64,000 nt of DNA from a virus. Lineage: Duplodnaviria; Caudoviricetes. Positions 9,042 to 60,254 of the stretch are shown in pieces (position 1 is the first letter of the stretch; each line of letters begins with the position of its first letter). The DNA lies in the IMG/VR virus record IMGVR_UViG_3300028048_000042. One strand, written 5' to 3'. The notes beneath the pieces were generated by a model. It did not search any database, was not told where the DNA came from, and saw only the letters and a program-made list of their open reading frames with translations. The translations under genes were made by a program, and so were the position numbers.

Positions 9042-10754
9042 ATGAAGAAGTTAATCGCCAAACTTGCTACCTTGCCACAATATAGTAAAAATGATAACTT
9101 TACTATGGCCTTGGTAGATTATTTATATAATGAATTAAAATTAAATGGTATTAGTGCAAGACGAGAAAAATCTTATGTAAAAGTTGCACTCAGCAATAAA
9201 TATGAAGGTAAATTTGAGCATATTATTATCGACTGTTGTGATGGTAGAATGTATTTACGTGGAAAAGATTGTAAAGATAAGCGTTGGGGAAAACTAAGCA
9301 AATTTAATCTCAAACGTAAATCTGATGCTTATGTTTGCGCAAATTACAATGCTCGTAGAATTATTAATCGAATTAAAAAGTTAGAAGATAAAATGATGGA
9401 GAAGGTCGAAATGATTCAAAAAGAAAAATTTTCACTTGCATCATCTACAAGCATTGATGATGAAGTGAATTATTATTTGTGTGATTTAGATAAAGATATT
9501 AATGAAACTGAAAAAGAACCTGTTGAGGTTGATATTATTGATTCAGACAATGATGAAATCATTGATTTAGATGCTGAAGATGAAATTATCGAATTAGATG
9601 ATGATACAGAAGCATATCCTTATTATGAATTAGATGAAAATGATGTAGTTGAAGAATATCCAATCTATGACCTCGATGATTACGATGGGGAAATCGAAGC
9701 ATATATTTTTGTCGAACCAATGGAAAAAGAGGTTATGGATGAACTTGTTCATGATTTGATGGAAGGTAACTATATTGAATTAAGTGACGAAGATGTAGTA
9801 GATGTTTATCCTTATTATGATTTGGAAGATGATGACGAAGTAGAAGCATATCCATATTATGAGTTAGACGAAAATGATGTGGATGAAGCATATACATTTG
9901 ATAACTTGTCAGAAGAAGAACAAACTGAATTACTTCATGATATGCTTGATGAAAATTATATTGACATCAAAACTGCATCAGATGAAGATAAACCATTGGA
10001 TAAATTAATGGCTCAAAAAGATGCAATTTTTGATGAATATTTTAAGAATTTTTTTCAGTCTCAGGAATTAACTAATTTTATTCAGAAACAACCACTTACT
10101 TATACAATGAGCCTTGGTGTTGAAGATTTAGTTCATGATGTAAAAGATAACTATCGTAAAGACATTGCTGATTTCGTTAAAAATAAATTGAATATTTCTG
10201 TGGACGATACAAATTTTGACAAAGACATATATGATGTTTTTAGTGATTATGTTTTCTCCAATGAGAAGAAACTTTTTGATAAATTAATCGTTACATTAAA
10301 GAACGTAGCAGGTAAAATGTTAGATGATTTTTCAAAGCAACTTGAAAATAATGATGACCAAGTTGGTAGAAAAATTGATATGGGTAATGGAGTAATTGAT
10401 ACCGTTGATATTATTAACCGTTCAAAACCATTTTTGTTTTTGGACGGAGAAGTTCATGTTGGGAAAAATAATCAGACACATTCTGATATTTTAAGAGAAC
10501 TCAACAAAACAGATAAAGAAGGTATGAGAAGACCTACAATGAATGATTTTCCTGATGATGCTGCAGTAGCATTTGGTCATATTTCAGGTAAAATTGGATT
10601 TTTGGATGGTTATACAAAAAACTGTTCAGATGAAGAAGTTGCTAAAGCTGTTGTACAATCAGGCGTTGTAAGCAAAGTTTATACTACACCTGACGGTGGT
10701 AAATATATAACAAGATTAGCAAATAATAAATTGGCTTGGATTCTTGGAGAGTGA
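9042..10754 (+). CDS. multidomain putative internal head protein (MKKL leader, acidic YPYY repeats, conserved THS/AFGH domain)
   Basis: 570 aa ORF; C-terminal domain paralogous to 42754, 51403 and 42337. Confidence 0.6.
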   Translation: MKKLIAKLATLPQYSKNDNFTMALVDYLYNELKLNGISARREKSYVKVALSNKYEGKFEHIIIDCCDGRMYLRGKDCKDKRWGKLSKFNLKRKSDAYVCANYNARRIINRIKKLEDKMMEKVEMIQKEKFSLASSTSIDDEVNYYLCDLDKDINETEKEPVEVDIIDSDNDEIIDLDAEDEIIELDDDTEAYPYYELDENDVVEEYPIYDLDDYDGEIEAYIFVEPMEKEVMDELVHDLMEGNYIELSDEDVVDVYPYYDLEDDDEVEAYPYYELDENDVDEAYTFDNLSEEEQTELLHDMLDENYIDIKTASDEDKPLDKLMAQKDAIFDEYFKNFFQSQELTNFIQKQPLTYTMSLGVEDLVHDVKDNYRKDIADFVKNKLNISVDDTNFDKDIYDVFSDYVFSNEKKLFDKLIVTLKNVAGKMLDDFSKQLENNDDQVGRKIDMGNGVIDTVDIINRSKPFLFLDGEVHVGKNNQTHSDILRELNKTDKEGMRRPTMNDFPDDAAVAFGHISGKIGFLDGYTKNCSDEEVAKAVVQSGVVSKVYTTPDGGKYITRLANNKLAWILGE

Positions 10755-10758
10755 GAAG

Positions 10759-11847
10759 ATGCTTTTAAATTCAGATAAATATTTTAAATCTCAAAAAATT
10801 CTTGATATGTTTAAAGTATCACAGTTGGATGTTCCTGATATGACAGTTCATGTAAATAGTGGTACGATTATTTATAACAATCAGGTAATTAATTTTAGCG
10901 AACAAGATAGTGAATATATTGAAGCTCCTAGAATCGGAACATGGCTTGTGGTTCTTTCTATTAATACAAAAGGACAATTGGTTTACACATATGGAGTTCA
11001 GTCTACGGAAGATAAGCAAATTCCTGTTTTGCCTGAAGATTGTTTCCATCTTTGTATTATTGAAGTTGGCGCAGATACAATGCAGATTACTAATGATATG
11101 ATTAGTGATATGCGAAATATGTATCATTTTAGTTCCACACAAGAGCAAAAATGTGTATATAAATGTGGTCTTGAAAGTGATTATTCTTTCACTGAAGAAG
11201 ACCGAAAAATGCTTAAATCTTTCTATGATAAATATGAAGACCTTCAGGCTCAAATTGATAAAATGAAACTGTTATTCAATCCTAAGAAGGAATATACAGT
11301 AATTACTGATAGCGGTCTTGAATATAAGATTCGTTTTAAAGATGATGGTACTCCATATTTTAGCAGAAATGATGCTTTTGATGATATTGACGATAACCCT
11401 GAAGAAAAGCATAAGAATTATAAATTTACATATAATAATGAAAAAATTACTGTTGTTATGGACAATCCTGAACAGTATTTGCAGTTACCTGTTAAAATTA
11501 AATCTTTTGACAATTTAAATGATGCATTGAATGTTACATTATTTGTTCGTTGTAAAGACGCAACTATTTATAGTCCAAATTTTGAACCACATTATCAGGA
11601 AGATGAATTCCAAATCAAAAATCTTGATTTGGCAAAAAGTGGGTTTTTTGAAAAATTCTCTGTAAAATTCCACGGCAGTGGAAATCATGATGTACAGTTG
11701 CTTTTGTATGATGCTGAAACAAAACAATTAATTGATAAAGCTAGTATTAGTTATGCAGTAGAATTTACTGACGAAGATTCAGAAGAAATTGGTGAAAATA
11801 CATATTCTAAAAGTTCTTCTAGGTCTTCAGGGAAAATCCATTTTTAA
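10759..11847 (+). CDS. putative fibre/appendage protein, paralog of 35334
   Basis: N-terminal approx 110 aa aligns with 35334 (PxMTVxVNxG...WxVVxxxNxxGxL...ITxDMIxDxR). Confidence 0.6.
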   Translation: MLLNSDKYFKSQKILDMFKVSQLDVPDMTVHVNSGTIIYNNQVINFSEQDSEYIEAPRIGTWLVVLSINTKGQLVYTYGVQSTEDKQIPVLPEDCFHLCIIEVGADTMQITNDMISDMRNMYHFSSTQEQKCVYKCGLESDYSFTEEDRKMLKSFYDKYEDLQAQIDKMKLLFNPKKEYTVITDSGLEYKIRFKDDGTPYFSRNDAFDDIDDNPEEKHKNYKFTYNNEKITVVMDNPEQYLQLPVKIKSFDNLNDALNVTLFVRCKDATIYSPNFEPHYQEDEFQIKNLDLAKSGFFEKFSVKFHGSGNHDVQLLLYDAETKQLIDKASISYAVEFTDEDSEEIGENTYSKSSSRSSGKIHF

Positions 11848-11854
11848 AAATATA

Positions 11855-11883: not shown

Positions 11884-11920
11884 AAAATCACAATACAGTA
11901 GTGAAAGGAAAGAAAATACA

Positions 11921-12382
11921 ATGAATATTATTGAAAAACGAATTAAGAAAGTTGCTTCCGTAGAAGGTTTTTTGAGTGGTATGAAAGAAGAGTATTCTAA
12001 TTATAATTGGGAACAGCTTGATAGCAACAACGTTGGCTTTTCTGTTTCTTATACAGGCGATGCTAATGGAGTTACTGATAAAAACGTAGCTTTGGTTATT
12101 GGCTTTGGCTTTCAGCCTGAAGACGAGCAGGAAGCGGTTGATGATGAAAATGTTCGTTTGACAATCATTGCAAAGACTTATATTGATAATGTTTTGAAAA
12201 ATACTGCTATTGAAAAAGAACTGAATGGAGTTAATGTAAAAAACATTATGACTCGTATTGAGAATTATATCACATCTGTGAATAGTGGTTGGTATAATCT
12301 CAACTTCCTTACAAAAACTGCAGCTTTTGTGAAAGAACAGTTCGGTGATGACTATACAAAGATTACATTTGCTCAGAAGTAA
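11921..12382 (+). CDS. hypothetical protein with KRIKKVAS leader
   Basis: aagga SD, 153 aa, followed by terminator. Confidence 0.7.
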   Translation: MNIIEKRIKKVASVEGFLSGMKEEYSNYNWEQLDSNNVGFSVSYTGDANGVTDKNVALVIGFGFQPEDEQEAVDDENVRLTIIAKTYIDNVLKNTAIEKELNGVNVKNIMTRIENYITSVNSGWYNLNFLTKTAAFVKEQFGDDYTKITFAQK

Positions 12383-19020: not shown

Positions 19021-19059
19021 AAAAAAGTATGGTAGAAAAAATCTACCATACTTTTTTTT
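19019..19059. terminator. bidirectional intrinsic terminator between convergent genes
   Basis: aaaaaagtatggtaga-loop-tctaccatacttttttt. Confidence 0.85.
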
Positions 19060-19462
19060 ATTTTTCTAATTCAACTTTAAACGAAATGTGGTCTTCAAAG
19101 GCACGAGCAGATACCGTAGCTTTATATTTATAAGAAGTCTCAATTTCATTAAATGCTAAAGCACCGATTTCGTCTTTTTTGGAAACCATGTAGTTCATTA
19201 AGTCTTTGCCCAATTTGCGTTTATTTTCAGTAGTAAGACCTGTAAATCCGATGTCGGTAGCATTTGCGAGGTCATCTAAATCAATTGTAACGACTGTAGA
19301 ATATTTATTTTCGCCGTCTTCAGAAAGAACGCCAACGTAAGGGCGACAATCGTGAATTGTCTGCTGTTCGAGTACCCACTGTTTACGTTCATTAAGGCAT
19401 TCATCATACTTACTGTTATCTTCAGCAATGCGAATAAGTCTCTGTTTAATTACATTACTCAT
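19058..19462 (-). CDS. hypothetical protein with KQRLIRIA leader
   Basis: start reassigned to MSNVIK after aaggag SD; the longer track ORF overlaps the terminase. Confidence 0.7.
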   Translation of the reverse strand: MSNVIKQRLIRIAEDNSKYDECLNERKQWVLEQQTIHDCRPYVGVLSEDGENKYSTVVTIDLDDLANATDIGFTGLTTENKRKLGKDLMNYMVSKKDEIGALAFNEIETSYKYKATVSARAFEDHISFKVELEK

Positions 19463-19526: not shown

Positions 19527-21620
19527 TTATCTCCATCTATATCTTCCATGACCTGCTTTTGGCATAGTGGAGCGTTGACCTGAATTCGTAGCGAAGTTAG
19601 CCAAAACGTCAGCATCACAAACGTCATCATGATAACCTGAAGGGGCTTCAATTTTTTTATTAACAGAAAAACCTGTAGTAGTCTGTTCAAGGTCAGCCCA
19701 TTCACCAATCATACGGTGATAATAATTAACGTTATCTTTACCTGCGCATTTTGTTGGTGAATTTAAGAATCTTTCTTTTGTAGGGTAGAAGAAACGACCA
19801 TTATCAAGTTCTTGTCGCCATTTGCCGTACATGGCATTTTTCATATTCATACCTGAATTGGTATATCTATCACGAGAGTTGAAGATGATACCTTCTACAT
19901 TACGCATACCATATTCATCTTGTAAAGTTTGAACAACTGCCGCACCACAGCCTGTATAATCAGCAAAGATTTTTGAACATTTAAATCTAGGATTTGCGCC
20001 ACCTAAAAGTCCTGCTATATAGTACATTTGTTCAGGATAAGTAGCATCTTTAAATTCTTTACCAAATACTTTATTTTTAGTACCATCACGATTAATACGA
20101 AGGACAGAGATTTGGGTAGCATCACCTTCAGGATTAGCACCTGCAAAGTCGATACCTGCCACATAATGTTCACCAATAATACCGTGGTCTAGCCAATCGA
20201 ATTCACCTGAACGCATTTTATCTACTTGAACTGAAGTAAGGAATTTACCTGCGCCATCAATGAATTCAAGCATGTACTGAGTACGGAAGTCTTCAATATC
20301 CAAGTTTCCTTCTGTCCAAACTTCAGGATTATTTGGGAACATTTCTTCTTTTAGAGCTTTAGGCATTGCCTGCTCTACAATAAACTTTGAATACGGACGA
20401 ACGATACCTGTTTTGGGGTCAGGAAGATAAATAGCACCCAAAGCCCAAGATTGAGCACATTGAGTCCAATCACGTTTAATAACAGTCCATTTATTACTAG
20501 CTTTACCTTCTACACAGTCATAGAAATGATTTCTAGTTTTAGGAGTACCAATTTTGACCAACTTAGCGTTTGTAGCACCGCCCATAGGTACAATTCGCTC
20601 TGACCAAGTATAATCAGAAACTTTTTGAGCCTCATCCAATACGATAACATCAAATGTCAAACCTTCGATATTGGATTGGTCAGAAGCAGAAACGGCACAT
20701 ACATAAGAACCATTATCTAATTCGACTTTATCTTTTGTTATTTTGACAATTTTGTGATTTAATTTATCTTCGTTCATTTGGAAGAATGTAGATAAACGTC
20801 CAATAGAAACTTCTGCCTGTTGCAAACGTGGTGTAAAAATACCAATGCGCATACAAGGGAAATTGTCAATTAAGAATCCACAGAATGAAGAAATAGATTC
20901 AGTGTTATGTACTACGGTATAGTCTTCAAGCATGAACAATTTATCTTCACTATCTAAGGTAAAACCGTAGTAATTTGCTTTTCTCTTTTTTACAACAATG
21001 AATCTATATTTTGTGAAGCTAGTTAAATCTTTAGACATTCTCCATCCAAAAAGATTTTCTCTTGTTTCTTTTTTTAATTTTAAATAATCTTTTATATTGA
21101 TATTTACAATATGATTATCAAAAGTCATCAATGATAAAATGTGAGACTCGTTAACTGTGTATTCAGAGTTATCAAAACCTTGAATTTTATACATAGTTTC
21201 TTTGCCACGCCCTAAATCAATAACTGTTGTGATATTACCAAATGGAGAAATTAATTTATCACCAACTTTGATGTCTTCAACTTTTTTTATTGATTTATCA
21301 GCCATCAAAATTTTTGTACCTTTGGCAAAGCATTTACCTGCCTGACGAGACATCATGCCTGCAACCATTTTTAATTTTGGATTGCAGACAGCACGAATAA
21401 GTGCTGTTTGATTCTCATGTAATTTTTGAAATTTTATAGGTAAATGACCACGTAATACATTTTCCACGTATTCAATAGGGTCAATTCGATTTAAAAATTT
21501 ATGATACATGAAATCATCTAATGGCATACCGTTAATTGTATTGTCTTGGCTTACTAAAGAGATTTCATCTTTGATTGCAGATACATTGTCTTGTATATGA
21601 ATCAATGAATTATTTTCCAT
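19527..21620 (-). CDS. terL: terminase large subunit containing a mini-intein
   Basis: SRQAGK|T Walker A, VLDEAQ Walker B, AGIDFA RNase-H nuclease motif, DYTGCG and HDDVCDA; start MENNSL after aaggag SD. Confidence 0.93.
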   Translation of the reverse strand: MENNSLIHIQDNVSAIKDEISLVSQDNTINGMPLDDFMYHKFLNRIDPIEYVENVLRGHLPIKFQKLHENQTALIRAVCNPKLKMVAGMMSRQAGKCFAKGTKILMADKSIKKVEDIKVGDKLISPFGNITTVIDLGRGKETMYKIQGFDNSEYTVNESHILSLMTFDNHIVNINIKDYLKLKKETRENLFGWRMSKDLTSFTKYRFIVVKKRKANYYGFTLDSEDKLFMLEDYTVVHNTESISSFCGFLIDNFPCMRIGIFTPRLQQAEVSIGRLSTFFQMNEDKLNHKIVKITKDKVELDNGSYVCAVSASDQSNIEGLTFDVIVLDEAQKVSDYTWSERIVPMGGATNAKLVKIGTPKTRNHFYDCVEGKASNKWTVIKRDWTQCAQSWALGAIYLPDPKTGIVRPYSKFIVEQAMPKALKEEMFPNNPEVWTEGNLDIEDFRTQYMLEFIDGAGKFLTSVQVDKMRSGEFDWLDHGIIGEHYVAGIDFAGANPEGDATQISVLRINRDGTKNKVFGKEFKDATYPEQMYYIAGLLGGANPRFKCSKIFADYTGCGAAVVQTLQDEYGMRNVEGIIFNSRDRYTNSGMNMKNAMYGKWRQELDNGRFFYPTKERFLNSPTKCAGKDNVNYYHRMIGEWADLEQTTTGFSVNKKIEAPSGYHDDVCDADVLANFATNSGQRSTMPKAGHGRYRWR
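20904..21332 (-). mobile_element. mini-intein (143 aa, no homing endonuclease) in the terminase Walker A motif
   Basis: begins CFAKGT, has block B TVNESH, ends VVHN followed by T. Confidence 0.92.
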
Positions 21621-22805: not shown

Positions 22806-24029
22806 ATGAGCGAAACGAAATTAAAGAATGGGCTTACAATCGTCACGACACCTTTTGACAGTGAATTTGTAACAATTGCTTTTTATGTAAATAAAGGTGC
22901 TAGAGATGAAAAAGACGATGAATTGGGTATTGCACATTTAGTAGAACATATGGTTTTCAAAGGTACGATTAATCGTGATAGAAAACAGATATGGGCAGAC
23001 ATTCAGAAAAACGGAGGAATACTGAATGCTTGTACCACAGAAGATTATACAATGTTTTTTGTTCATTGTTTGAAAGAATATATGGACGAAGCATTGGATG
23101 TTATTTATGAACTTGTATTTCTTAATACAATTCCTGAAGAAGAATTTGAGTTAGAAAAATCTGTTGTTGTTGAAGAAGTTAAAATGTATGAAAATCAGAT
23201 AGAACAACAGGCATTGGTCTTACTCAATAAGACGTTATATCCCAACAATAAAAACAGATGGGATGTTGGTAGTACACCTGAAAATGTTTCAAAAATTACA
23301 AGAAAACAGGTAATTGATTTTATTAATCGTAATTATATTCCTCAAAATATCACTTTATATGTAGCAGGTGATGTAGAACAAAAACATTTTGTTGATAAAA
23401 TGGAAGATTATCTGAGGGATTTTGAATTCATTAAATCTTCTCCTGAAATTCGTGCAAAGAATATAAAATTAAATTTTGATAATGCAAAAGAGTCAAAAGA
23501 TGGGTCACAGTCAGCAATGATTGCTTATTATCCAATGAATCTCAAAAATAATAAAGAAGTTATTATGGATGAAATTTCAAATTATATTTTGGGTGATGGA
23601 TTTAACAGTCGTTTCATGACAATTCGTGAAGACTTCGGTTATGTATATAGTCTTGAATGTGATACAGATTTTGATGGATTTGACGAAGAAGGTTATTCTT
23701 TAGTTTTTACTCAATTAAATAGTCAGAATATTCCAAAAACAAAAGAAGTAATTGAAGGTATTTTGGATGAATACTGCAAGGATGGAGTTTCGGATGAAGA
23801 ATTTGAATGTGCAGTAAACAATATAAAATTCAAAATTAGAAAAAGCTTTGAAACAGTTAATAAGACTAACGAAACAATTATTGGTAATAGACAAAAAGGA
23901 ATTCCTGAAACAGAAAAAGAATTGATGAAACTCCTTAATTCGATTACAAAAGCAGATTTTGATAAATTTATTAAAGACAAATTTAAAGACGTAAAGGTTA
24001 ATTATATTATTGTAGAACAAACGAGGTAG
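22806..24029 (+). CDS. M16 family zinc peptidase (insulinase/pitrilysin-like)
   Basis: GIAHLVEHMVFKGT (HxxEH), NACT and EKSVVVEE motifs. Confidence 0.93.
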   Translation: MSETKLKNGLTIVTTPFDSEFVTIAFYVNKGARDEKDDELGIAHLVEHMVFKGTINRDRKQIWADIQKNGGILNACTTEDYTMFFVHCLKEYMDEALDVIYELVFLNTIPEEEFELEKSVVVEEVKMYENQIEQQALVLLNKTLYPNNKNRWDVGSTPENVSKITRKQVIDFINRNYIPQNITLYVAGDVEQKHFVDKMEDYLRDFEFIKSSPEIRAKNIKLNFDNAKESKDGSQSAMIAYYPMNLKNNKEVIMDEISNYILGDGFNSRFMTIREDFGYVYSLECDTDFDGFDEEGYSLVFTQLNSQNIPKTKEVIEGILDEYCKDGVSDEEFECAVNNIKFKIRKSFETVNKTNETIIGNRQKGIPETEKELMKLLNSITKADFDKFIKDKFKDVKVNYIIVEQTR

Positions 24030-24866: not shown

Positions 24867-25487
24867 GTGAAATTCGTGATTAAACGAGTTGCAGAAAGAC
24901 TTGATGACAGCACAATGAAACGAATCGCATCCGCAATCAAAGAAAAGCAGAACAAGTTGTTTTCTGTTGTGAAATCTGAAGCAGAAGCAAAAGAGATTGT
25001 GACCGATTTGAAAGTGAATGGTTATCAAGCAAATTATCAAAAGGTCGGTAGTTTGTATAAGGTTTTCTACTGTACACAGATTCCTCAGTACAAAGATACT
25101 CCTTTGGCAAACCAAGAAAGTTCAGCATATGCCAATTTTGCAAAAAGCGGTTTAACACAAGTTTTAAATAAACCTGCAAAATGTGCATTTGATGAAGGAA
25201 GTATATGGCACGTAAAAGAAATTGATGGTGTTCCATATATTGTAAAAGAAGTTGCAGAAGATAATGAAGATGTAGTTATTCGAAAAAAAGCAACTGCAAG
25301 TGCTAAAGAACAGTACAAAGGCGAATTGGACGTTTCGATTGTACAGTTATTGGCAAAAAAGAATATAATAATTTCGGCAAAGCTCGTAGATGAAATCAAA
25401 GATAAGGTTTTATCTAAAGCATTAAAAATGCCATCAATGCAGAAACTCATTGAAGAATACGCAACAAAGGAGTTCAATAATGGCTGA
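24867..25487 (+). CDS. hypothetical protein with KRVA/MKRIAS leader, probable virion protein
   Basis: 206 aa ORF heading a putative late operon. Confidence 0.6.
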   Translation: MKFVIKRVAERLDDSTMKRIASAIKEKQNKLFSVVKSEAEAKEIVTDLKVNGYQANYQKVGSLYKVFYCTQIPQYKDTPLANQESSAYANFAKSGLTQVLNKPAKCAFDEGSIWHVKEIDGVPYIVKEVAEDNEDVVIRKKATASAKEQYKGELDVSIVQLLAKKNIIISAKLVDEIKDKVLSKALKMPSMQKLIEEYATKEFNNG

Positions 25488-30022: not shown

Positions 30023-30292
30023 ATGAAAAGATTGGTTCGTTTGTCAGCATTAGATATGAAAAAATTAGAAGAAGATTATTTGAAGATGATTGAGAAGGAA
30101 AATCAATCATCTTCTCCTTCTAATAAACCAACATATAAATTAACTGACAAAGAAAAAATGAATGATGACGAAAAAACATTTTTCCCATCGACAGGGCTTT
30201 TAGTTGAATATGATGATAATCAAGTAGATACAAATCCTAGAGGTGGAATACCTGGGCCTTGGGCGGCTTCATTAAGATGGATTGGAAGATGA
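30023..30292 (+). CDS. hypothetical protein with MKRL leader
   Basis: MKRLVRLSA start, SD. Confidence 0.65.
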   Translation: MKRLVRLSALDMKKLEEDYLKMIEKENQSSSPSNKPTYKLTDKEKMNDDEKTFFPSTGLLVEYDDNQVDTNPRGGIPGPWAASLRWIGR

Positions 30293-30296
30293 TGAA

Positions 30297-31262: not shown

Positions 31263-31265
31263 AAT

Positions 31266-41100: not shown

Positions 41101-41403
41101 ATGTTAAAAAGACTCTGTAATCATGTTTCTCCATTTACACATAATGTAGTTACTGATATTGTAAAGAAAAGTTCTAGCAATGAGATTGCTAGTAGTTATG
41201 CTCATGTGTTAGCAAAACAAATTTTGGCAGACTTGCCATTAATTCCGACAGGACATTTGGTTTATAATTTGACTCAGCAGATTCAGTTTGGTTTGCTTGA
41301 TTCTGTTTGTCCTTTGGAAGATGTAAAAAATCATTGGCAGGAATGCTTAGATGTTGCAGGTCAGTATTTAAAAGATATGGGTATTTGGTGTGAAGCGAAA
41401 TGA
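41101..41403 (+). CDS. hypothetical protein with MLKRL leader
   Basis: aaggag SD, 100 aa. Confidence 0.65.
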   Translation: MLKRLCNHVSPFTHNVVTDIVKKSSSNEIASSYAHVLAKQILADLPLIPTGHLVYNLTQQIQFGLLDSVCPLEDVKNHWQECLDVAGQYLKDMGIWCEAK

Positions 41404-42323
41404 TTATTATTAACAATACAGAAGGTAGGATTGAAGATTACGTTGAAAGTAATGATGGTGTCGTTTTATTTGGTAATAAAAAAGTTGACATTAACGTATT
41501 GAAAGATAGTCCTACGTTAAATAAAGTTGGGAAGAAAATTGCTACAGCGAAGTTGGTTAAGTTAGTCCCTAAAGAAAAAGATTTTTTGTATATTCGAAAT
41601 CGTGCAGTTTCAGCAGGTAATGTTATTGAAAAAGAAGATGGCACATGTGATTTAGTTCCGATTGAGGAATTTCACAATAATTTTGGCAAATATGCTTTTA
41701 TTTGCCGTGGTGCAAATGATAACGGTGATTTCTTTTCTCATGAAGAATTAGAGAAAAAATATAAGACCTTTATTGGTAAGGCTGTTTTCTATGAGCATGA
41801 TGATGATAACATTAATAAAGCTCGTGGTATTATTCTTGATTCCATTTATAATACAAATGGTTATTACGTTGAATTATTTGAAGCAATTGACGCAAAAGCT
41901 TATCCACAGTTAGCAACTGCTGTAAAAAATGGTCATTTGACAGATACTTCTATGGGATGCTATATTGGAAAAGCAATTTGTTCCATTTGTGGCAATGTTT
42001 CCAAAGAAGTAAATCCTGAAGAGGGAATGGATGACCGTTGCGAACACATTAAACGTTATAAAGGTTTAACTTATAATGGTTTGCCTGTTTTTGAAGATAA
42101 TCGTGATGTTGTTTTCTTTGAAGATAGTATCGTTGGTACAGGTGCGGATTCGCAAGCAAAGATTATGGAACGTGTTGCAAGCAAGAAAAATCAATCAGGT
42201 ATTATTCTTCCTCAGTATTATCAGAAGAAAAACGATGTTTTCGCAAAAGAACAGAATCAGCGTACATTCCAAGGTCGTGTGCACAATCTTGAAAATAAAT
42301 TCAGTGAATTGCCTTGGTCATAA
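41400..42323 (+). CDS. prohead (capsid maturation) protease
   Basis: NDNGDFF..EEL, EH...ARG.ILD, TSMGC and CSICGN...CEHI motifs of herpes/HK97-fold phage proteases. Confidence 0.8.
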   Translation: MIIINNTEGRIEDYVESNDGVVLFGNKKVDINVLKDSPTLNKVGKKIATAKLVKLVPKEKDFLYIRNRAVSAGNVIEKEDGTCDLVPIEEFHNNFGKYAFICRGANDNGDFFSHEELEKKYKTFIGKAVFYEHDDDNINKARGIILDSIYNTNGYYVELFEAIDAKAYPQLATAVKNGHLTDTSMGCYIGKAICSICGNVSKEVNPEEGMDDRCEHIKRYKGLTYNGLPVFEDNRDVVFFEDSIVGTGADSQAKIMERVASKKNQSGIILPQYYQKKNDVFAKEQNQRTFQGRVHNLENKFSELPWS

Positions 42324-42336: not shown

Positions 42337-42660
42337 TTAATCTGCTCCTTTTTCATATATAAGTTCTAATTGTGTTTGAGATGTGCGTAAAAAGATTCTA
42401 TTTGCACCTTGTTTTTTAAATGCATTAATAATGTCATCTTTCATCATATTGTTAAGTATACGTAAATTTTCAACAATGAAGTCGTTATTAATCTGATGAA
42501 AAAAACAAAAATGATATTGGAAGGGGTTGTAATAAAATTTTCTTAGTGCAAGAGTATGTGTTTTTCCTTTGTATATTTTCCCTTTTGAAAATACACCTGC
42601 ACAATCTCTTGTATTTAAATCAAGAATATCAATATTGAATTCTTTTTGTATTGTTGTCAT
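42337..42660 (-). CDS. stand-alone member of the THS/AFGH domain family
   Basis: DLNTRD...GKTHT...FFH aligns with the shared domain of 9042, 42754 and 51403; gaggag SD. Confidence 0.6.
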   Translation of the reverse strand: MTTIQKEFNIDILDLNTRDCAGVFSKGKIYKGKTHTLALRKFYYNPFQYHFCFFHQINNDFIVENLRILNNMMKDDIINAFKKQGANRIFLRTSQTQLELIYEKGAD

Positions 42661-42753: not shown

Positions 42754-43821
42754 ATGAATAAGAGATTGATTGCGGATAGAGCAGATATTCTTAAAAATGG
42801 ATATGAAGATTTAGTTGATGTAATTAATGATTCTTCAGAAGATGCAGTTAAAGAAGATTTTTTCAGTGTTATTAAAAAGAATTTCCCTGCAAAAACTTTT
42901 GTAGAAGCTACTTTAAAGCAGGGTGCGGCAACGCAGAATGAAATCAATAAAGAAACACTGATGAATAAGTTACCACAGTATTTGAAAGATACAGCGCATT
43001 TATATTATCAGAAATTCTACAAAAAACGTTTAATTGATGACGAAATCGCTTGTGAACCAAAAGATAAAATCTTTAAGCAAGCTGTTGAAAAGTTTTCTTC
43101 GGAAATTGTATTGAACGAAGAGTTGGGTAAAATGGTAGAAGATGCCATTAATGACGAAAGTGTTCAAGAACGTTATTTTAAACATGAAGAAAAGCCAAAA
43201 GAAAAAGAAAAATCAAAGGACAAAAAGCAAAACAATGAAGAGTTATCTTATGAGGAAGAAATTGAACAAACTGTCAAAAAACGAGGGGTTATACCATTTG
43301 GTGTTTTAAAAGATTTAGATGAACCTGTTGGAACAACAGGCATTCCAATTATGCCTGTTGATGTTGGGCGTAGAGATTATCCTTTTATTGTTATGGACAA
43401 TTCTATTTTCGTTAAAGGAACGTCAAAAGATAGCCATTCAACTGCATTGCATGAATGGGCAGAAAAACATAAAAATGACAAAACGGAATTAGGAAAAAAA
43501 CTTAAAGAAATTTATGATAAAAATGATGATGATTGGTATCGTGAGAATGCAATAGCTGCTCTTGCAAAAGCAGGAGTGACTAAATTAGCTTTCGGTCACG
43601 TTCGTGAAGATATGGCTTTTGTTGATACATGTGATGGATGTACAGCCGATGATGTAAAAAGTGTTGTAAAAAGTGGCACAGGAGTTTCCAAGGTTTATGA
43701 TGTAACAAAACATATGTCTTACGGTGCTTGGAGTGGAGTTCGTGTAGCTAGATTAATTCCTAATTACAATAAAGAAATGCATAATTCGGCTATTGAAGAA
43801 ATGAAAAAATTTAAGCATTAA
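42754..43821 (+). CDS. putative internal head protein (MNKRLIA leader, THS/AFGH domain)
   Basis: paralogous C-terminal domain ending in RVA. Confidence 0.6.
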   Translation: MNKRLIADRADILKNGYEDLVDVINDSSEDAVKEDFFSVIKKNFPAKTFVEATLKQGAATQNEINKETLMNKLPQYLKDTAHLYYQKFYKKRLIDDEIACEPKDKIFKQAVEKFSSEIVLNEELGKMVEDAINDESVQERYFKHEEKPKEKEKSKDKKQNNEELSYEEEIEQTVKKRGVIPFGVLKDLDEPVGTTGIPIMPVDVGRRDYPFIVMDNSIFVKGTSKDSHSTALHEWAEKHKNDKTELGKKLKEIYDKNDDDWYRENAIAALAKAGVTKLAFGHVREDMAFVDTCDGCTADDVKSVVKSGTGVSKVYDVTKHMSYGAWSGVRVARLIPNYNKEMHNSAIEEMKKFKH

Positions 43822-43915: not shown

Positions 43916-44404
43916 ATGAAACGATTAATCGCAGATAATAGCAAATCAATTGAACAGATGATTAAGAGTACGGCTGTTGAAGGTCGTGAGATTTTGAAAT
44001 CTTTGGAACAATTTAAATTTGAATTGGAACAATGTGTAAAGATTTCGGTAAATGAAGATATTAATAGTAAAATACATCAACATTATGATATGGTAGATAA
44101 ATTAATGTCAGGTTTATATACTATTTGTTATGATATGGAAAACGTTGATTTAGTGCCTGTTTATGATAATGACCAAATTGATATGAGTAATCAAGATTCT
44201 CCTGATAGTGATAATGCAGGTTATAAATTGGGTGAGGAATATCCACTACCTGAAGATGAAAACGCTGACGAAGAAACTAATAATGAATCTTCAGAAAATG
44301 AATCTAGTGACGAAGAATCATCAGATACAGAGACAGATGAAAATGATTCTGAAAATGAAAGTGAGGAAAAAGGAGAAGAAAGTTCCGACACTGAAGAAGA
44401 GTAA
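43916..44404 (+). CDS. hypothetical protein with MKRLIA leader and acidic tail
   Basis: 162 aa. Confidence 0.65.
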   Translation: MKRLIADNSKSIEQMIKSTAVEGREILKSLEQFKFELEQCVKISVNEDINSKIHQHYDMVDKLMSGLYTICYDMENVDLVPVYDNDQIDMSNQDSPDSDNAGYKLGEEYPLPEDENADEETNNESSENESSDEESSDTETDENDSENESEEKGEESSDTEEE

Positions 44405-44429: not shown

Positions 44430-45164
44430 ATGAAATTGAAGGTTGTAAAACCTAAACCAAAATATTATAAGATTTCATATGCTATGTTGAGTTATCATTT
44501 GGAAAAAGAAACGCCACAGGAAGAAGAACAAGATGTTGTGGAGAAACCTGTGGTAAAAAAAGCGACCACACAATTTGCTACAAAATATGAAAAATTAGTG
44601 GATATGGCAATTACTAAAGGCTTGGTGGAGGAAGATGAACGAGAAACAAAAGTCTTAGAATTGCAATGTTTATCCGAAGAAGATTTTGATGAATATGCAA
44701 AAGAGGTTGAAGATGCAGTTTCTGCGAAAGTTGGTAGTATTACTGACAAAGAACCTGAGTTTGAAGAAGGTATGACAGAAGCAGAAAAAACTTTAGCGAA
44801 AATTCGTGCTACAGGTTCAGCACCAATTATGACAGATTTTTCAGGTGCTAGTGAAGATATGTTATTGGGTGATGAATCATCAGGCTCACGTTCGTTGGCA
44901 GATATTAAGCAAGATAGATTGATGGCGCAAGCTATGGAATCAATGACGATTAAAAACGATACTCAATTACTTCAAGATGCAATGGGAGATTTGGCTGACA
45001 AATTACATAAAAATAAAGCAACGGCAAATGCTAAATCTCCAATGTCAGGTTTAAAAGGATTGACTAAACCAATTGTTGTTCCACAACAACAGCAATTTGG
45101 GTATAGAGGTAATTCTTGGGCAGATAAATTAGCAGGCTTGAATTGGTCTTCAGGAAGTAGGTAA
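44430..45164 (+). CDS. hypothetical protein, possible scaffold-related
   Basis: 244 aa; lies between protease and capsid genes. Confidence 0.55.
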   Translation: MKLKVVKPKPKYYKISYAMLSYHLEKETPQEEEQDVVEKPVVKKATTQFATKYEKLVDMAITKGLVEEDERETKVLELQCLSEEDFDEYAKEVEDAVSAKVGSITDKEPEFEEGMTEAEKTLAKIRATGSAPIMTDFSGASEDMLLGDESSGSRSLADIKQDRLMAQAMESMTIKNDTQLLQDAMGDLADKLHKNKATANAKSPMSGLKGLTKPIVVPQQQQFGYRGNSWADKLAGLNWSSGSR

Positions 45165-46523: not shown

Positions 46524-47030
46524 ATGGCAGGTGGAAATTTTATTTTTAAGCCAACTGCGGATTCTACAGAGTATGTCCGTGCTGCTTATGAAGGTGTAAT
46601 TAATGGTCTTTATGACGTAAATGTTGCAAAGGCAAAAGAAGTTAAAGGCGAACTCGCAGGTAAATTTGCTGCAATCGCTGCTGATGGTACTGTAACTCTT
46701 GCAGGTGATAAGGGTAAAGGTGCTGTTGGTCTTATTCGTGAAGATTTGATTGATATGGAAAACGCTTCTGCTAAAGCATCATTCTATATGCTTGGCATGG
46801 GCGGTGAATATCACGTTTCTGCAAAACGTCTTGGTGCAGATATTTCTACTTTCAAAGTTGGTGAGGAAATCACTACAAATGCTGACGGTGCTATTGTTCC
46901 TGCAGCTGCAGGCGATAAGGTACTTGGCACTGTGGTTTCTGTTGGTGAGTTCCGTATGGGTAATATGAAGGAATGGGCAGGCACAGAAGCTAACGGCGGT
47001 CTTTTCCTTGGTTTCATTATGCATGTTTAA
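46524..47030 (+). CDS. capsid decoration/minor head protein
   Basis: immediately upstream of MCP; Ala/Gly-rich; ggagg SD. Confidence 0.65.
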   Translation: MAGGNFIFKPTADSTEYVRAAYEGVINGLYDVNVAKAKEVKGELAGKFAAIAADGTVTLAGDKGKGAVGLIREDLIDMENASAKASFYMLGMGGEYHVSAKRLGADISTFKVGEEITTNADGAIVPAAAGDKVLGTVVSVGEFRMGNMKEWAGTEANGGLFLGFIMHV

Positions 47031-47052: not shown

Positions 47053-47898
47053 ATGGCTATGACTCAAGAAGAACAGGAATTCCTTATCTCCGAAGCATTG
47101 GAGACAAGTGAAGGTCGTGCGGCATTGGCTTCCTCAATGGCTAACCCAATCCGTACATCATTGGATTATCAGGGTATCGCTCGTAAATTGCTCGTAGTAG
47201 ATGCTCTCCCACAGGGTGCTCTCCCTGTTTATGACCGTGATGTTGATGCGAAAGCATTCATCATCTCTAAGCGTGGTCAAGCTCCTGACCAGCTCATTGA
47301 AGGCGAACGTGTTCAGGTTCCAACCTTTGAGATTGTTTCTCACCCACTCGTTCGTTTCTCTCAGATTAAGGAGCGTCGTTTCAACATCATTGACCGTGCA
47401 CAGCAGCGTGCTAAGTCTGATATTATGGCTGTTGAGGATGAAACTGTATTCTCCCTTATCGACAGTGCAGCTTCTGCTGTTAATACTGTAACGGTTTCTA
47501 AAGGTGCTCTTACTCGTGATGCTCTTACAACTGCTTTTAAAGAAGTTGAAAAGCATGACCTCCCTGTTACAAAGATTGTTATGAACGCTCAGGCTTTTGC
47601 TGACATCCGTAAATGGGGTCAGAATGAGTTTGACCCTGTTACTCAGCACGAAGTTCTTCAGACTGGTAACTTCGGTCATCTTTGGACAGCAGAAATTCTT
47701 ATTTCTAAGAAAGTTCCTGCAAATACAGTCTATGTTATGTCCGACCCTGAGTTCGTAGGCGTTATGCCTGTTCGTCAGGATATTCAGGTAATTCCTGCTG
47801 ACGAGCCTGAAAAACTTCGTGTAGGTTGGGTTGTATACGAGGAAATCGGTATGTCTGTACTCAATGCACAGGCAGTTGCTAAGATTGAAATTCAGTAA
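47053..47898 (+). CDS. major capsid protein (HK97 fold)
   Basis: LASSMANPIR..LDYQGIARK.LVVD.LPQGALPVYDRD signature; highly biased codon usage; strong aggagg SD; terminator follows. Confidence 0.88.
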   Translation: MAMTQEEQEFLISEALETSEGRAALASSMANPIRTSLDYQGIARKLLVVDALPQGALPVYDRDVDAKAFIISKRGQAPDQLIEGERVQVPTFEIVSHPLVRFSQIKERRFNIIDRAQQRAKSDIMAVEDETVFSLIDSAASAVNTVTVSKGALTRDALTTAFKEVEKHDLPVTKIVMNAQAFADIRKWGQNEFDPVTQHEVLQTGNFGHLWTAEILISKKVPANTVYVMSDPEFVGVMPVRQDIQVIPADEPEKLRVGWVVYEEIGMSVLNAQAVAKIEIQ

Positions 47899-51229: not shown

Positions 51230-51415
51230 ATGGAAACTGCAATAGCTTTACTTTTAGTTTTTGCTGTTTTTGTAACAGCAGTAAACTTTTTGGTTGAAGT
51301 GGTTATGCCGATTGCAATTTTTGTTTTTCTCTTTTATGCAATTGGTGGAGTTGATTATATTCGAGAATTGATTAAATATTGCAAAGCAAGGTGGGGTTAT
51401 AAATGGAAAGATTAA
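51230..51415 (+). CDS. small membrane protein
   Basis: hydrophobic 61-aa ORF. Confidence 0.55.
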   Translation: METAIALLLVFAVFVTAVNFLVEVVMPIAIFVFLFYAIGGVDYIRELIKYCKARWGYKWKD

Positions 51416-52569
51416 AAAAAGTATTGGCAGAGGAAGAAACAGAAAACGAAGAGCAAGAAATTGTTTGTGAAGATTTGAATGATATTAAACAGTATGTTGA
51501 AGATATTGATGGCTACGCATGTTCACCATATGTATTTACAGAATCAGGAATGGAAGAATACCTTGAATCTTTATTTCCTATTGATGTATCTGAAATATAT
51601 GATGATGGTGCGGAAACTTTTATTGAAAAATTAGAAGAATATACTTTTGAAGATTATTGTAATGATATTGATACCGAATCATTGAAAAGTGAATATGAAG
51701 ATAATTGGGACAGTTATGTTGCTGATGATGATTTGAATTATGATGTGTATTCGTTTGATTGGGACAATATCACAAGTGATTTGTGGGAACTTGCTTCAGA
51801 AAATGACGAGTTGGAAGATTTGTATGATTCTGTTGTTGAAAATTATATAGCAAAAGTTCCAAACACCGATTCTTCTGAACGTGTTGATGATGACGAGGAT
51901 AATTATGAGGTAAAATCTCTTGATGAAGTTGCTGAATCTGATGATAAAGTTGGTGATGTTTTCTCTTTGGAAGATTCAATTGATTATGATACAAGAGATA
52001 ATGCGTTCATTTATATTGATGGAGAGATTGTTGAAAGTAATAACGGAGAAACACATTCGCAATTATTACAGAGATATTTAGAAGAGAATGATAAAAATGT
52101 TCCTCAAGATTTGCGTGACCGTGACCAATATCGCGCTTCACGACCAAGTGTTAAGCAGACAAAAAAAATGACAAATGCAGATGATGTAGCATTTGGTCAT
52201 ATTGTTGATGATTGTGCTTTTATTGAGGTTATTTCAGGCGGTGCTACGATTGATGATGTCGCAAATGCTTGTAAAAAAGACTATTCAAAAGTATATCAAT
52301 ATGACGGAGATAATATCAAACGTGTAGCTAGTAGTAAGAAAATGGAAGATGTAATTCGTGGATTTGGTTTTCGTCCATTTGTTGTAGAAAATTTAGGTAC
52401 AGCATTAATGGGTAAGTACAGCATGATTACTATGGAAAATGGCTATCCACGTATTGATGTGGCTTTAAATGCTGACGTTGAAAATATTGACCAAGAAGAA
52501 TTTGATGATGAATTTGCAAAAGCTCTTATGCTTTGTAAGACATTGGGTAAATTGAAGTTGTATAAATGA
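51403..52569 (+). CDS. putative internal head protein (MERL leader, acidic domain, THS/AFGH domain)
   Basis: paralogous domain ending in KRVAS followed by an extra domain. Confidence 0.6.
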   Translation: MERLKKVLAEEETENEEQEIVCEDLNDIKQYVEDIDGYACSPYVFTESGMEEYLESLFPIDVSEIYDDGAETFIEKLEEYTFEDYCNDIDTESLKSEYEDNWDSYVADDDLNYDVYSFDWDNITSDLWELASENDELEDLYDSVVENYIAKVPNTDSSERVDDDEDNYEVKSLDEVAESDDKVGDVFSLEDSIDYDTRDNAFIYIDGEIVESNNGETHSQLLQRYLEENDKNVPQDLRDRDQYRASRPSVKQTKKMTNADDVAFGHIVDDCAFIEVISGGATIDDVANACKKDYSKVYQYDGDNIKRVASSKKMEDVIRGFGFRPFVVENLGTALMGKYSMITMENGYPRIDVALNADVENIDQEEFDDEFAKALMLCKTLGKLKLYK

Positions 52570-52648: not shown

Positions 52649-53821
52649 ATGAAAAGACTTGCTAGTACAGAATTGACAGTTGTACACAGTCGTGAAGATA
52701 TTCCATCAACGGAAATGAAAAGTCTTTTTCTTGCAGGCCCTACTCCAAGAAAAAAGCATAATCTTGAATGGCGTTCGGAAGCAATTAAAATTCTTAAAGA
52801 ACTAGGCTATAATGGTATTGTATATACACCAACTGAACGTAAAGGTGAATTTGACCGTAATGTTCTGAAAGAGCAGTGTGCATGGGAATACAAGACAATG
52901 ATGGCTTGTGATGCTATTGTTTTTTGGATTCCTCGACAAAAACGACAAGATTTTGAAATGATTGCATTAACTACTAATGTGGAATTTGGTCGTTTCTTTG
53001 AGTCAAATAAAATGTTCTGTGGTGCTCCTAATGACGCAAAATCAATCGAATATTTGAAAATTATTTCTGAAAATAGATATGAATGGACAAATACTTTGCG
53101 AGATACACTTAAACGAGCTGTAGATTATCTTGGTGAAGGTGTATATCGTGAGGGAGCAGAGTGTTTAGTTCCTAAACATATTTTTGAATCTGCTCAATTT
53201 CAAAATTGGTATAAATCTCATAAGCAGAATGGAAATCAATTAACTGATTTTAAGACTTTGTTTGAATTCATTGCTCCTTATTCAAAGAAAATGTTTATGA
53301 CGATTTTTAAACCTGATGTGTTCATTGAAAAAGAAAATCGCACAAAAAATAATGAATTTGTAGTTGCAAGAACAGATGTATCATATATCTGTGCTTACCA
53401 TAAGACCAAAAAGGAAACTAAAATTCTTTTATGTGAAGAATTTAGAAGTCCTGTTGTAAATGATGATTCAATGGTTTATGAACTTGTGGGCGGTAGTAGT
53501 GATAATCCAAATGACGATGAATTGCAAGTTGCCGCAAATGAGTTTGAAGAAGAAACAGGCGTGAAATTAAAAAAGAGCAGATTCAAGAAGGTTGATATTA
53601 AACAGTCTGCAGCAACGCTTTGCTCTCATAGGATTACACTTTACTCTGTTGAATTAACGGATGAAGAAATTAAACATTTTGAGGAAGATAAAGATATTCA
53701 CGGAGTGACGGAAGCAACAGAACAGATTCATCTTCATGTCATGACTTTGGAAGATGCATTAAAGAAAGTAGATTGGACAAACGCAGGTATGATTTTTGCC
53801 GCAATGAAAGGAAAAGAATGA
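52649..53821 (+). CDS. nucleoside 2-deoxyribosyltransferase-like / Nudix hydrolase fusion
   Basis: LFLAGPTPR..WR, Q..WE, D.IVFWIPR, TT.VEFG (NDT-like); EEFRSPV..YELVGG...AANEFEEETG (Nudix box). Confidence 0.85.
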   Translation: MKRLASTELTVVHSREDIPSTEMKSLFLAGPTPRKKHNLEWRSEAIKILKELGYNGIVYTPTERKGEFDRNVLKEQCAWEYKTMMACDAIVFWIPRQKRQDFEMIALTTNVEFGRFFESNKMFCGAPNDAKSIEYLKIISENRYEWTNTLRDTLKRAVDYLGEGVYREGAECLVPKHIFESAQFQNWYKSHKQNGNQLTDFKTLFEFIAPYSKKMFMTIFKPDVFIEKENRTKNNEFVVARTDVSYICAYHKTKKETKILLCEEFRSPVVNDDSMVYELVGGSSDNPNDDELQVAANEFEEETGVKLKKSRFKKVDIKQSAATLCSHRITLYSVELTDEEIKHFEEDKDIHGVTEATEQIHLHVMTLEDALKKVDWTNAGMIFAAMKGKE

Positions 53822-58743: not shown

Positions 58744-58994
58744 TGTATATTTGTTCTATCACAGAGTATAAACAGGATGAAAAAAGTTGTGTTTATCGGT
58801 TGGAAATGTTGGAGTTGGGAGATAATGGGTTTAATCATAACCATGAATTGAAATTTGATTTTTATATCTCAGACAATAACAAATTGGATTGGGAAAAAGA
58901 ACAAGTACGGCATTACTTCGAATATGATAAAGAAAAACCGAATATTGTTTGTAATAATATGGATGTACTGAAAATTCTTTATCAAAATGAATGA
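58743..58994 (+). CDS. hypothetical protein
   Basis: coupled to helicase, aaggag SD. Confidence 0.6.
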   Translation: MYICSITEYKQDEKSCVYRLEMLELGDNGFNHNHELKFDFYISDNNKLDWEKEQVRHYFEYDKEKPNIVCNNMDVLKILYQNE

Positions 58995-59099
58995 TGAAAA
59001 AATAAGCACTTTTTGAAAAAGTGCTTATTTTTTTTATGTAAAATTTTATATTGTTTGTAGATTAAAAAATAACAAATAATGAAAAGAGGATAAATATAA

Positions 59100-60254
59100 A
59101 TGAGAAATATTATTTTGGCTCGTTTGCGCAGAGCTTTAGCAAAAATGGATATTACTACAAAATGTCCTGCCACTCCATTTAAGGTTGGCGACCCTATTGG
59201 TGATACCGAAGTTGTTAACGCAAGTGCTTTGAAATCGGCAGGAGCACTTAGTAAAAATCTTATTGATTTTGAGGATAAGGCAGATAACAGCAAACTTTAT
59301 ACAAAACAATATATTGATACAACAGGAGAAATTACCGCAGTTGAATTGGCAAAAGTTCTTGGTGATAAAGGCCCTTGGATTGGTCAAGAACAAGATAAAT
59401 TGTATAAAAAGCTGATTGATTACATTGGTGGCAATGAATTTACTGCAAAAGTAAAGGGTAAAGAATATGAATTTAAAACTTCTACAGACCAAAAAATTTA
59501 TACAAAAAGTACAAATGCACATGACGAAAACGCATTCTTTATCAAAGTAGTTCGTGCTGATGATGAATCATTGAAATACAATTGTTTCTTTAGTTTCACA
59601 GCAAAAATTTATTATCTTGGTGTAGCAGATGCCAAAACAAAAACTTGGACAAATGAAGTTTATCCTATGGTTGATTTGGAAGGTGTTAACTTCAATGGCT
59701 ATAAAGTTGTAGGTAAAAATCAGGTTGTAAAAAAAGAACAAATGGATTCTGCTAATACAGTTGGAGAACTTGCAAAACATTTTACTGAACGAGATGCAGA
59801 AGAACTTTCCACAAAGAATTATAGCAAACTTTGTCAGAAACTAAAGAAGGGTAATCCTGTAGCAAATATTCGTAACTATTTTAAAGATTTTCTTGGATAT
59901 AAGAGTGGTAAAGATATTCCTGATGAAGCATTTGTGAAAATGATGGAAGATGCAGAACCTGCTAAGAAAGCGGTGCGTCAGGCAATGGTAGAATATGCTA
60001 AATCTGTAAGCAATCGTGCAAGAGAGAATGCAGAAGCACCACTCACAGAAGAGGATGAAAAGGCTCTTGGTGTTCTTGGGGCATTCGCAAGGTCTAATAC
60101 AGATGTTGGCGTTAATGAAGATTTTAAAGTTGGTACAACCTCACCATCAGGTAATGATTTGATGAAGCTGTATGCTAGTGGAAGTGCTGTTGGCGATGTG
60201 ATTCCATTCTCAGTAGATGATATTGTATCAATTCTTAAAACAGCAACAAAATAA
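59100..60254 (+). CDS. hypothetical protein with ARLRRALA leader, putative internal virion protein
   Basis: 384 aa monocistronic gene. Confidence 0.65.
   Translation: MRNIILARLRRALAKMDITTKCPATPFKVGDPIGDTEVVNASALKSAGALSKNLIDFEDKADNSKLYTKQYIDTTGEITAVELAKVLGDKGPWIGQEQDKLYKKLIDYIGGNEFTAKVKGKEYEFKTSTDQKIYTKSTNAHDENAFFIKVVRADDESLKYNCFFSFTAKIYYLGVADAKTKTWTNEVYPMVDLEGVNFNGYKVVGKNQVVKKEQMDSANTVGELAKHFTERDAEELSTKNYSKLCQKLKKGNPVANIRNYFKDFLGYKSGKDIPDEAFVKMMEDAEPAKKAVRQAMVEYAKSVSNRARENAEAPLTEEDEKALGVLGAFARSNTDVGVNEDFKVGTTSPSGNDLMKLYASGSAVGDVIPFSVDDIVSILKTATK

Follow-up and report, generated by a model that had tools for sequence, protein, structure and literature searches.

The tag and its carriers

The stretch of DNA analyzed here (hereafter the window) comprises 64,000 nucleotides of the IMG/VR virus record IMGVR_UViG_3300028048_000042 (Duplodnaviria; Caudoviricetes), has a G+C content of 31% and is coding almost entirely on the + strand. 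Between positions 9,042 and 60,254, about ten otherwise unrelated proteins begin with a basic peptide of six to nine residues, Met-Lys-Arg-Leu-Ile/Val-...-Ala, which we call the tag. This element is real, specific to the N-terminus, selected at the amino-acid level and restricted to the clade of Bacillus phage G. A preliminary description of the window had drawn attention to the shared leader and proposed that it routes diverse proteins into the phage head; the observation is real and mostly accurate, and the head-routing interpretation is plausible and supported in part.

No close relative of the window was found by megablast against sequenced phages. With tblastn, phage G is the sole phage matched, the 1083-aa protein and the head genes of the window resembling their counterparts there. 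A 281-kb, 98%-complete IMG/VR phage, labelled G009, was used as a relative and is colinear with the window in gene order. In addition, a protein identical to the product of gene 52649 (genes are named here by the coordinate of their start) is encoded on a 318-kb contig of the protein collection.

Circularity in defining the tag was avoided by training a position-specific scoring matrix (PSSM) on 79 non-redundant leaders, all of them from other genomes. The resulting consensus is [K/I]-[K/S]-R-L-[I/V/K]-[K/R]-[K/A]-[A/S], with an invariant Arg-Leu pair. Arg is residue 3 in 50 of the 79 leaders, the motif being otherwise displaced inward by up to six residues. The tag ends on a small residue (Ala or Ser in 52% of the leaders), beyond which the information content is about 0.2 bit; it bears a charge of +3 to +4 and no acidic residues. 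In the subclade to which the window belongs it takes the shortened form MKRL(I/V)A.

The preliminary description had listed 13 N-termini, all of which are present at their respective positions and strands. Eight are firm members and three are probable:

9042-10754, + strand: 570-aa protein with a diverged tag, MKKLIAKLA, and a C-terminal R/D-H-H domain (see below); PSSM score 3.8; firm by its G009 orthologue at 110345 (MKRLVAK)
11921-12382, + strand: probable tag, MNIIEKRIKKVAS; score 4.2; the G009 gene at the same position starts MKRLFANN
19058-19462, - strand: 134-aa protein with the tag displaced inward, MSNVIKQRLIRIA; score 13.2
30023-30292, + strand: 89-aa tagged protein, MKRLVRLSA; score 17.6; G009 orthologue MKRLVKLSE
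32225-32590, + strand: 121-aa tagged protein, MKRLIKRTA, of the phage G gp9 family (members with KRL or SRL[KR]K variants); score 15.4
32593-32793, + strand: 66-aa tagged protein, MKRLVAEE, of the phage G gp10 family; score 12.6
41101-41403, + strand: 100-aa protein with a shortened tag, MLKRL-NHVSP, of the phage G gp17 family; firm by orthology to gp17 (MKRLIKKSNHVEP)
42754-43821, + strand: 355-aa protein, MNKRLIA, probable, with the C-terminal R/D-H-H orphan domain; score 6.3
43916-44404, + strand: 162-aa tagged protein, MKRLIADN, of the phage G gp20 family (KRL in 13 of 17 members); score 12.8
51403-52569, + strand: 388-aa protein with a probable (borderline) tag, MERLKKVLA, and the R/D-H-H domain; score 2.1
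52649-53821, + strand: NDT-like/Nudix enzyme, MKRLASTE; PF15891, E 1.5e-12; firm on the strength of its phage G orthologue at 244460 (MKRLVKANK)

The two remaining claims are not supported:

24876-25487, + strand: claimed tag carrier, its family being that of phage G gp4; score -7.6
59100-60254, + strand: claimed member; score -0.6

Five genes (30023, 32225, 32593, 43916 and 19462 on the - strand) are firm by PSSM, and their scores of 12.6-17.6 are reached by no internal position of the window. The families add further detail: gp10-family orthologues begin MKRLV(S/A)., MKKRLISK or MKKSRLKK, and in 14 of 21 members of the gp17 family KRL precedes a conserved NHVSP..H..V block, the window gene (41101) lying directly upstream of the prohead protease gene. 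The 43916 product has a very acidic tail (49 Asp and Glu residues), and its gp20 family is always encoded between the protease and the scaffold-like gene. The borderline 51403 protein is also extremely acidic (102 Asp and Glu among 388 residues); its N-terminus is like the SRLKK and TRLKK variants seen elsewhere, and its G009 homologue lacks the tag. For the product of 19462 there is a weak ToxN-like match (PF13958, E 7.7e-5) under the curated cut-off, and a search of Pfam and PHROGs with the first ten tagged window proteins tested gave nothing significant for nine of them.

As for the claims that did not hold, gene 24867 (MKFVIKRVA) is better started at the GTG at 24876, and its MI[KR]R segment is the conserved N-terminus of the protein body; gene 59100 scores at chance level and has an orthologue in neither G009 nor phage G. 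A further candidate, 7616 (MESATHKRLKL; score 6.8), was rejected as a false positive, its match being a conserved body segment. The preliminary description was right, on the other hand, in stating that ordinary enzymes of the window lack the leader: it is absent from Gmk, FolD, the DinG-like helicase and the dUTPase, four assignments that Pfam bears out.

The 89-aa tagged protein encoded at 30023 has the C-terminal end GGIPGPWAASLRWIGR and is followed directly 3' by two paralogous radical SAM genes (30023-32213; 43% identical), of whose products it may be a substrate. At the corresponding place G009 encodes a single enzyme of this type, and no phage G homologues of the two window enzymes were found by BLAST.

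Specificity of the motif

In the window the motif is confined to true gene starts. KRL lies within residues 2-7 in 7 of 80 genes, as against 4 occurrences among 18,181 internal positions, a rate from which about 0.07 N-terminal cases would be expected by chance. At a score of at least 6, the PSSM recovers 36 of 693 open reading frames (ORFs) in phage G and 15 of 397 in G009, where internal rates predict fewer than one; at a score of at least 10, it recovers 31 and 13, respectively. Two unrelated phages of similar A+T content, Bacillus phage AR9 (303 ORFs) and Staphylococcus phage K (221 ORFs), served as controls: their 524 ORFs include none at a score of at least 10, two at a score of at least 6 and a single KRL N-terminus. 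A+T bias is rejected as the cause by these controls, and the enrichment of the leader far exceeds chance. Among the phage-G-like loci reached via the protease (L001-L021), none is without the tag, of which there are 1-7 per 20 kb, and ten loci with only distant protease relatives contain none among 205 ORFs.

The codons used in the tag for Lys, Arg and Leu match the overall synonymous usage of each genome; in phage G, for instance, Arg is encoded by CGT, AGA and CGA, and Leu by TTA, CTT, TTG and CTA. Selection thus acts on the peptide and not on the DNA, and a DNA-level signal was rejected as the cause. A shared promoter was rejected as well, since the upstream regions of 58 tagged genes show no significant enrichment of any 7-mer. 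Finally, paralogy as the sole cause is rejected by the lack of homology among the tagged families outside the tag. Clustering of ORFs delineates at least five non-homologous conserved tagged families (those of phage G gp9, gp10, gp13, gp17 and gp20), together with many singletons.

The tag as a portable addition

Comparison of tagged with leaderless homologues in three families bears out the notion that the leader is a portable tag, closing in a small residue, on unrelated proteins. One of the three is the NDT-like/Nudix family, for which 117 homologues were collected. Thirty-one of them, all relatives of the phage G clade, possess eight extra residues, whereas in the 86 untagged homologues the protein opens with the first strand (MxVVYA...); FL[AG]G accordingly falls at residue 27 in the former and at residue 19 in the latter. 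Tagged homologues often retain the ancestral Met right after the tag (MKRLIKKADN-M-KVVYA; P0165-P0169). A gene of this kind could in principle give tagged and untagged isoforms by alternative initiation.

A second family, with the domain start (F/Y)HGTS, is found in phage G (loci L034, L035, L039, L043 and L053, and gp53 in L032), where seven paralogues are tagged and two or three begin at YHGTS. It matches PF00644 (E 2.5e-4), its profile matches DarT and Tpt1 in the PDB, and the top Foldseek matches of its structural model are Tpt1, KptA and DarT, with a probability of 0.98 for what is a poor model (pLDDT 50). Given the low confidence of this ADP-ribosyltransferase (ART)-like model, the assignment rests on three weak, concordant lines, which together place the family in the ADP-ribosyltransferase superfamily. 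In the model, residues 1-7, corresponding to the tag, are unstructured and precede the first strand. The nearest matches of the family, DarT and Tpt1/KptA, act on nucleic acids.

The third case is an orphan domain of about 110 residues, named R/D-H-H after its conserved Arg, Asp, His and His, which forms the C-termini of the proteins encoded at 9042, 42754 and 51403. The preliminary description had held the bodies of the tagged proteins to be largely unrelated; this is the case for most carriers, but not for these three. The domain copies, located by alignment, are:

10392-10727, + strand: R/D-H-H domain (gene 9042)
43348-43767, + strand: R/D-H-H domain (gene 42754)
51970-52335, + strand: R/D-H-H domain (gene 51403)
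42346-42633, - strand: R/D-H-H domain of the stand-alone gene
42337-42660, - strand: stand-alone, untagged R/D-H-H domain gene, found by alignment, its cluster being recovered by profile search

The domain has 290 representatives in metagenomes at E<=0.001, with up to seven tandem copies per protein, and 29 of the best 149 representatives are tagged. The tag directly precedes the domain in some carriers and lies hundreds of residues away in others. AlphaFold2 models the domain with confidence (pLDDT 84), and no significant structural neighbour was found for the model (best E of 0.04 with Foldseek against the PDB; best Z of 4.3 VIA-wide); against BFVD it matches only an uncharacterized phage protein.

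Position and charge of the carriers

The head genes of the window comprise:

37923-39680, + strand: portal, untagged; phrog_16240, E 5.7e-126
41400-42323, + strand: prohead protease, untagged; phrog_18299, E 1.4e-15; 49% identical to phage G gp19
44430-45164, + strand: putative scaffolding protein, untagged; C-terminal motif (see below); counterpart of phage G gp21
46524-47030: decoration protein (annotated gene)
47053-47898, + strand: major capsid protein (MCP), HK97 fold, untagged; phrog_2522, E 1.1e-102; 77% identical to phage G gp27

A search of PDB sequences with the prohead protease profile found no match. The MCP has an acidic N-arm (MAMTQEEQEF).

In the window, G009 and phage G alike, small tagged proteins are encoded on the flanks of these genes: several immediately precede the portal, a single one the protease, and another, which is very acidic, comes after the protease. 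Altogether, six conserved small tagged proteins surround the portal, protease and scaffold. The head region is enriched in tagged genes: 9 of the 36 tagged genes of phage G fall within the first 40 kb (p 0.003), as do 6 of 15 in G009 (p 0.007).

The carriers are also set apart by their charge. Past residue 12, tagged proteins of phage G have a median net charge of -0.104 per residue, compared with -0.017 for the rest (p 2e-12), and the values in G009 are -0.073 and 0.000 (p 1e-4); in the window the difference between tagged and untagged proteins is not significant (n = 7). Besides the enzymes discussed above, tagged proteins of phage G include matches to ParB_N, SLOG cluster 4, GNAT and, weakly, WYL. 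The tagged ART-fold, NDT-like/Nudix, SLOG and GNAT enzymes are of the effector type, which, like the position of tagged genes around the portal, protease and scaffold and their enrichment there, favours head routing. In phage T4, the packaged protein Alt is an ADP-ribosyltransferase, and the tagged ART-fold enzymes of phage G recall it in this respect.

An M16B peptidase and a C-terminal motif in the morphogenesis region

The preliminary description envisaged removal of the leader by the prohead protease in the manner of T4. The leaders themselves give this no support: apart from the small residue at their end, we find neither a conserved Glu nor another cleavage signal behind them. The window does, however, encode another candidate leader peptidase, which the preliminary description had missed. 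It lies in the following neighbourhood:

19527-21620, - strand: large terminase with intein; Hint/intein domain PF05203, E 5e-25
22806-24029, + strand: M16B zinc peptidase, homologue of phage G gp2, candidate leader peptidase; PF00675 and PF05193
24038-24682, + strand: protein with sigma-70 region 4; PF04545, E 1.4e-10

The M16B peptidase matches PF00675 (E 1.3e-29) and PF05193 (E 8.7e-23) and has an intact HLVEH sequence (HxxEH at residue 44). Its PDB matches include 3hdi (E 7.6e-32) and beta-MPP, the beta subunit of the mitochondrial processing peptidase (MPP) (about 1e-24), its closest relatives of known structure thus being a bacterial processing protease and beta-MPP; a PHROG family was not found for it. 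All 11 tag-positive contigs have a single copy of its gene, which is missing from the five tag-negative contigs as well as from AR9 and phage K. In the window and two further contigs in which the distance was checked, the gene lies 15-19 kb upstream of the protease. The co-occurrence with the tag compares a single clade with outgroups, so that its cases lack independence, and it constitutes a lead and not evidence of coupling. In its own right, the peptidase gene belongs to the core of the morphogenesis region in all 11 phage-G-like contigs checked.

Two features of the neighbouring genes may be recorded here. The terminase gene is on the opposite strand to most of the window and is split by its Hint/intein domain. 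The sigma-70 region 4 gene adjoins that of the peptidase, and its product is 74% identical to its G009 counterpart and 51% identical to phage G gp3.

The protease and the putative scaffold of the window end in ...ELPWS and ...GLNWSSGSR, respectively, and have L-x-W-[ST] in common. This pairing occurs in eight of the nine genomes checked, the window and phage G among the nine (the loci being the window, L001, L003, L005, L006, L011, L012 and phage G gp19/gp21), with the general forms ...L(P/H)W(S/T/G) in the protease and ...L(D/G/N)W(S/T)xxS(R/K) in the putative scaffold, two genes downstream. By analogy with lambda C and Nu3, the C-terminal motif is probably a signal by which the protease and scaffold dock to the shell. 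If so, the N-terminal tag would represent a second, separate address.

A possible route into the head

We favour the view that the tag docks its carriers to the assembling prohead and works like the capsid-targeting sequence (CTS) of T4, and we assign to it a probability of about 0.5. Docking, packaging, ejection and cleavage are steps that we infer. The tag would form a short basic amphipathic segment of two turns outside the folded domain of the carrier, and it could dock either to the N-arm of the HK97-fold MCP, which is acidic, or to an acidic scaffold or core. Two classes of protein would thus be enclosed: on the one hand, the small acidic core proteins whose genes surround the portal, protease and scaffold; on the other, enzymes such as the NDT-like/Nudix protein of the window or the ART-fold, SLOG and GNAT proteins of phage G. 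Some of them might be degraded as the head matures, others ejected together with the DNA. The tag might be trimmed afterwards at its terminal small residue, the candidates for this step being the prohead serine protease and the MPP-like M16B peptidase.

Several observations weigh against head routing. Between 60 and 75% of the tagged genes lie outside the structural region, and close orthologues gain and lose the tag. The tagged proteins are strongly acidic, unlike the basic internal proteins of T4, and many of them may therefore be core or scaffold components rather than injected cargo. The tag itself is basic and the T4 CTS acidic, so that the two have no sequence relationship. The protease and the putative scaffold use a C-terminal motif different from the tag. 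Lastly, neither the 79 leaders nor the families present a conserved cleavage motif after the tag or an invariant Glu such as that of T4 or phiKZ; Glu or Asp does follow the tag in some members, but not in all.

Among the alternatives, the tag could be a presequence for the M16B peptidase, involved in cytoplasmic processing, activation or timed destruction, with no part in capsid loading. Beta-MPP cuts short basic amphipathic N-terminal presequences, and the intact active-site motif of the phage enzyme, its location in the morphogenesis region, its nearest solved relatives, its distribution among tag-positive and tag-negative genomes and the sharp end of the tag at a small residue all speak for such a connection. 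Nonetheless, that distribution is confounded by phylogeny, the tag is far shorter than MPP presequences and has no Arg at a fixed -2 or -3 position of a defined site, and M16B enzymes also take part in the maturation of ribosomally synthesized and post-translationally modified peptides, in a phage that is rich in radical SAM enzymes. Presequence processing is, moreover, compatible with head targeting, and as a replacement for it we consider it rather unlikely. We attach a similarly low likelihood to the tag addressing its carriers elsewhere in the infected cell, be it to the phage DNA or replication centre, as a basic patch resembling a nuclear localization signal, or to a membrane surface. 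The dispersal of most tagged genes over the genome and the charge of the tag would suit such an address, as would the nucleotide- or DNA-modifying types (ART-fold near DarT/Tpt1, NDT-like, ParB_N, SLOG, GNAT) of the tagged phage G enzymes, but six conserved tagged proteins are encoded within the portal-protease-scaffold cluster, and carriers that are otherwise strongly acidic fit DNA binding poorly. A review of jumbo phages, moreover, places phage G among those outside the Chimalliviridae; many jumbo phages have no chimallin homologues and probably do not form a protein nucleus (PMC13282480).

The proposal that the tag has no sorting role at all, and is due to the optimization of translation initiation, to the codon bias of A+T-rich genomes or to an n-region left over from a Sec signal peptide, is largely refuted and retains a very small probability. 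It draws on the frequency of Lys at position 2 in A+T-rich genomes and on the Sec signal peptides of Firmicute prophage lysins, which begin with an identical MKRLIKKA. However, the motif is essentially missing from the two unrelated A+T-rich phages, its Arg-Leu pair is invariant and the Arg often a CGN codon, it is retained when up to six residues away from Met, and no common DNA motif lies upstream. In addition, no hydrophobic h-region follows the tag in any window member, and a Sec signal peptide was rejected on these grounds. The lysins in question are a secreted family of small Firmicute prophages (L082-L094), in which MKRLIKKA is followed by a hydrophobic core.

Head targeting and processing by the M16B enzyme can also be combined into a broader proposal, namely that the phage G clade encodes its own sorting and processing system, in which a minimal basic presequence, borne by 4-5% of the proteins (ADP-ribosyltransferase-fold, NDT/Nudix, SLOG and GNAT enzymes among them), would be recognized and removed by a dedicated MPP-like M16B peptidase during loading into the largest known phage capsid. 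In this full form the idea is speculative and probably incorrect; if true, bacterial viruses would possess a counterpart to the import and processing of mitochondrial presequences, and the M16B link would define a new role of this protease family in virus assembly.

The filling of giant capsids with proteins is little understood. No description of a tag of this kind, nor MKRLIK-type strings in a phage context, was found in the searchable literature, and the phage G papers found had nothing on tagged proteins. A short consensus tag would make it possible to predict, from sequence alone, which proteins uncultured phage-G-like phages package or eject, and it flags ART-fold, NDT/Nudix, SLOG and GNAT proteins as candidate early-acting enzymes. 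Phage G, the sole cultivated member of the clade, offers a directly testable system. Should the tag prove sufficient for loading, a peptide of six to eight residues would provide a compact handle to place chosen proteins in phage heads.

Comparison with known systems

The closest parallel is the CTS of T4, a short, acidic sequence found on internal proteins, in a phage in which the core proteins gp67 and gp68 are encoded between the portal and the protease (PMC5694885). Like the CTS of IPI-III and Alt, which is removed by gp21, the tag is a short and portable N-terminal peptide on unrelated proteins. In both cases there is an ADP-ribosyltransferase-type carrier, small core-type carriers are encoded beside the portal and protease, and about 3-5% of the genes are tagged. 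The differences are equally plain: the CTS is acidic and 10-20 residues long, whereas the tag is basic and has six to nine residues; T4 uses a Glu-type cut (L/I-x-E), of which there is no equivalent after the tag; and the internal proteins of T4 are basic, while the carriers in the phage G clade are acidic. Hence, the tag is at most CTS-like in its working, and not a homologue of the T4 sequence.

In phiKZ-like giant phages such as SPN3US, ejection and inner-body proteins have family-specific propeptides of 80-130 residues that end in A/S/G-x-E (PMC5694885). Such phages share with the phage G clade a giant capsid and many internal proteins, and an N-terminal region is thought to direct their incorporation. 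However, their propeptides are long and particular to each family, as opposed to one minimal consensus serving many families. The mitochondrial presequence and MPP provide a different kind of likeness, in that the tag is also a basic amphipathic N-terminal segment without acidic residues and an M16B enzyme with HxxEH is encoded in the same genome; the phage tag is nonetheless much shorter, no membrane translocation is involved, and the link consists only of co-occurrence at the level of the clade. The cargo-loading peptides of encapsulins, finally, are usually C-terminal and bind a defined pocket of the shell, whereas the phage tag is N-terminal; yet they too are short terminal peptides with Leu/Ile anchors and basic residues, and they load unrelated enzymes into an HK97-fold shell.

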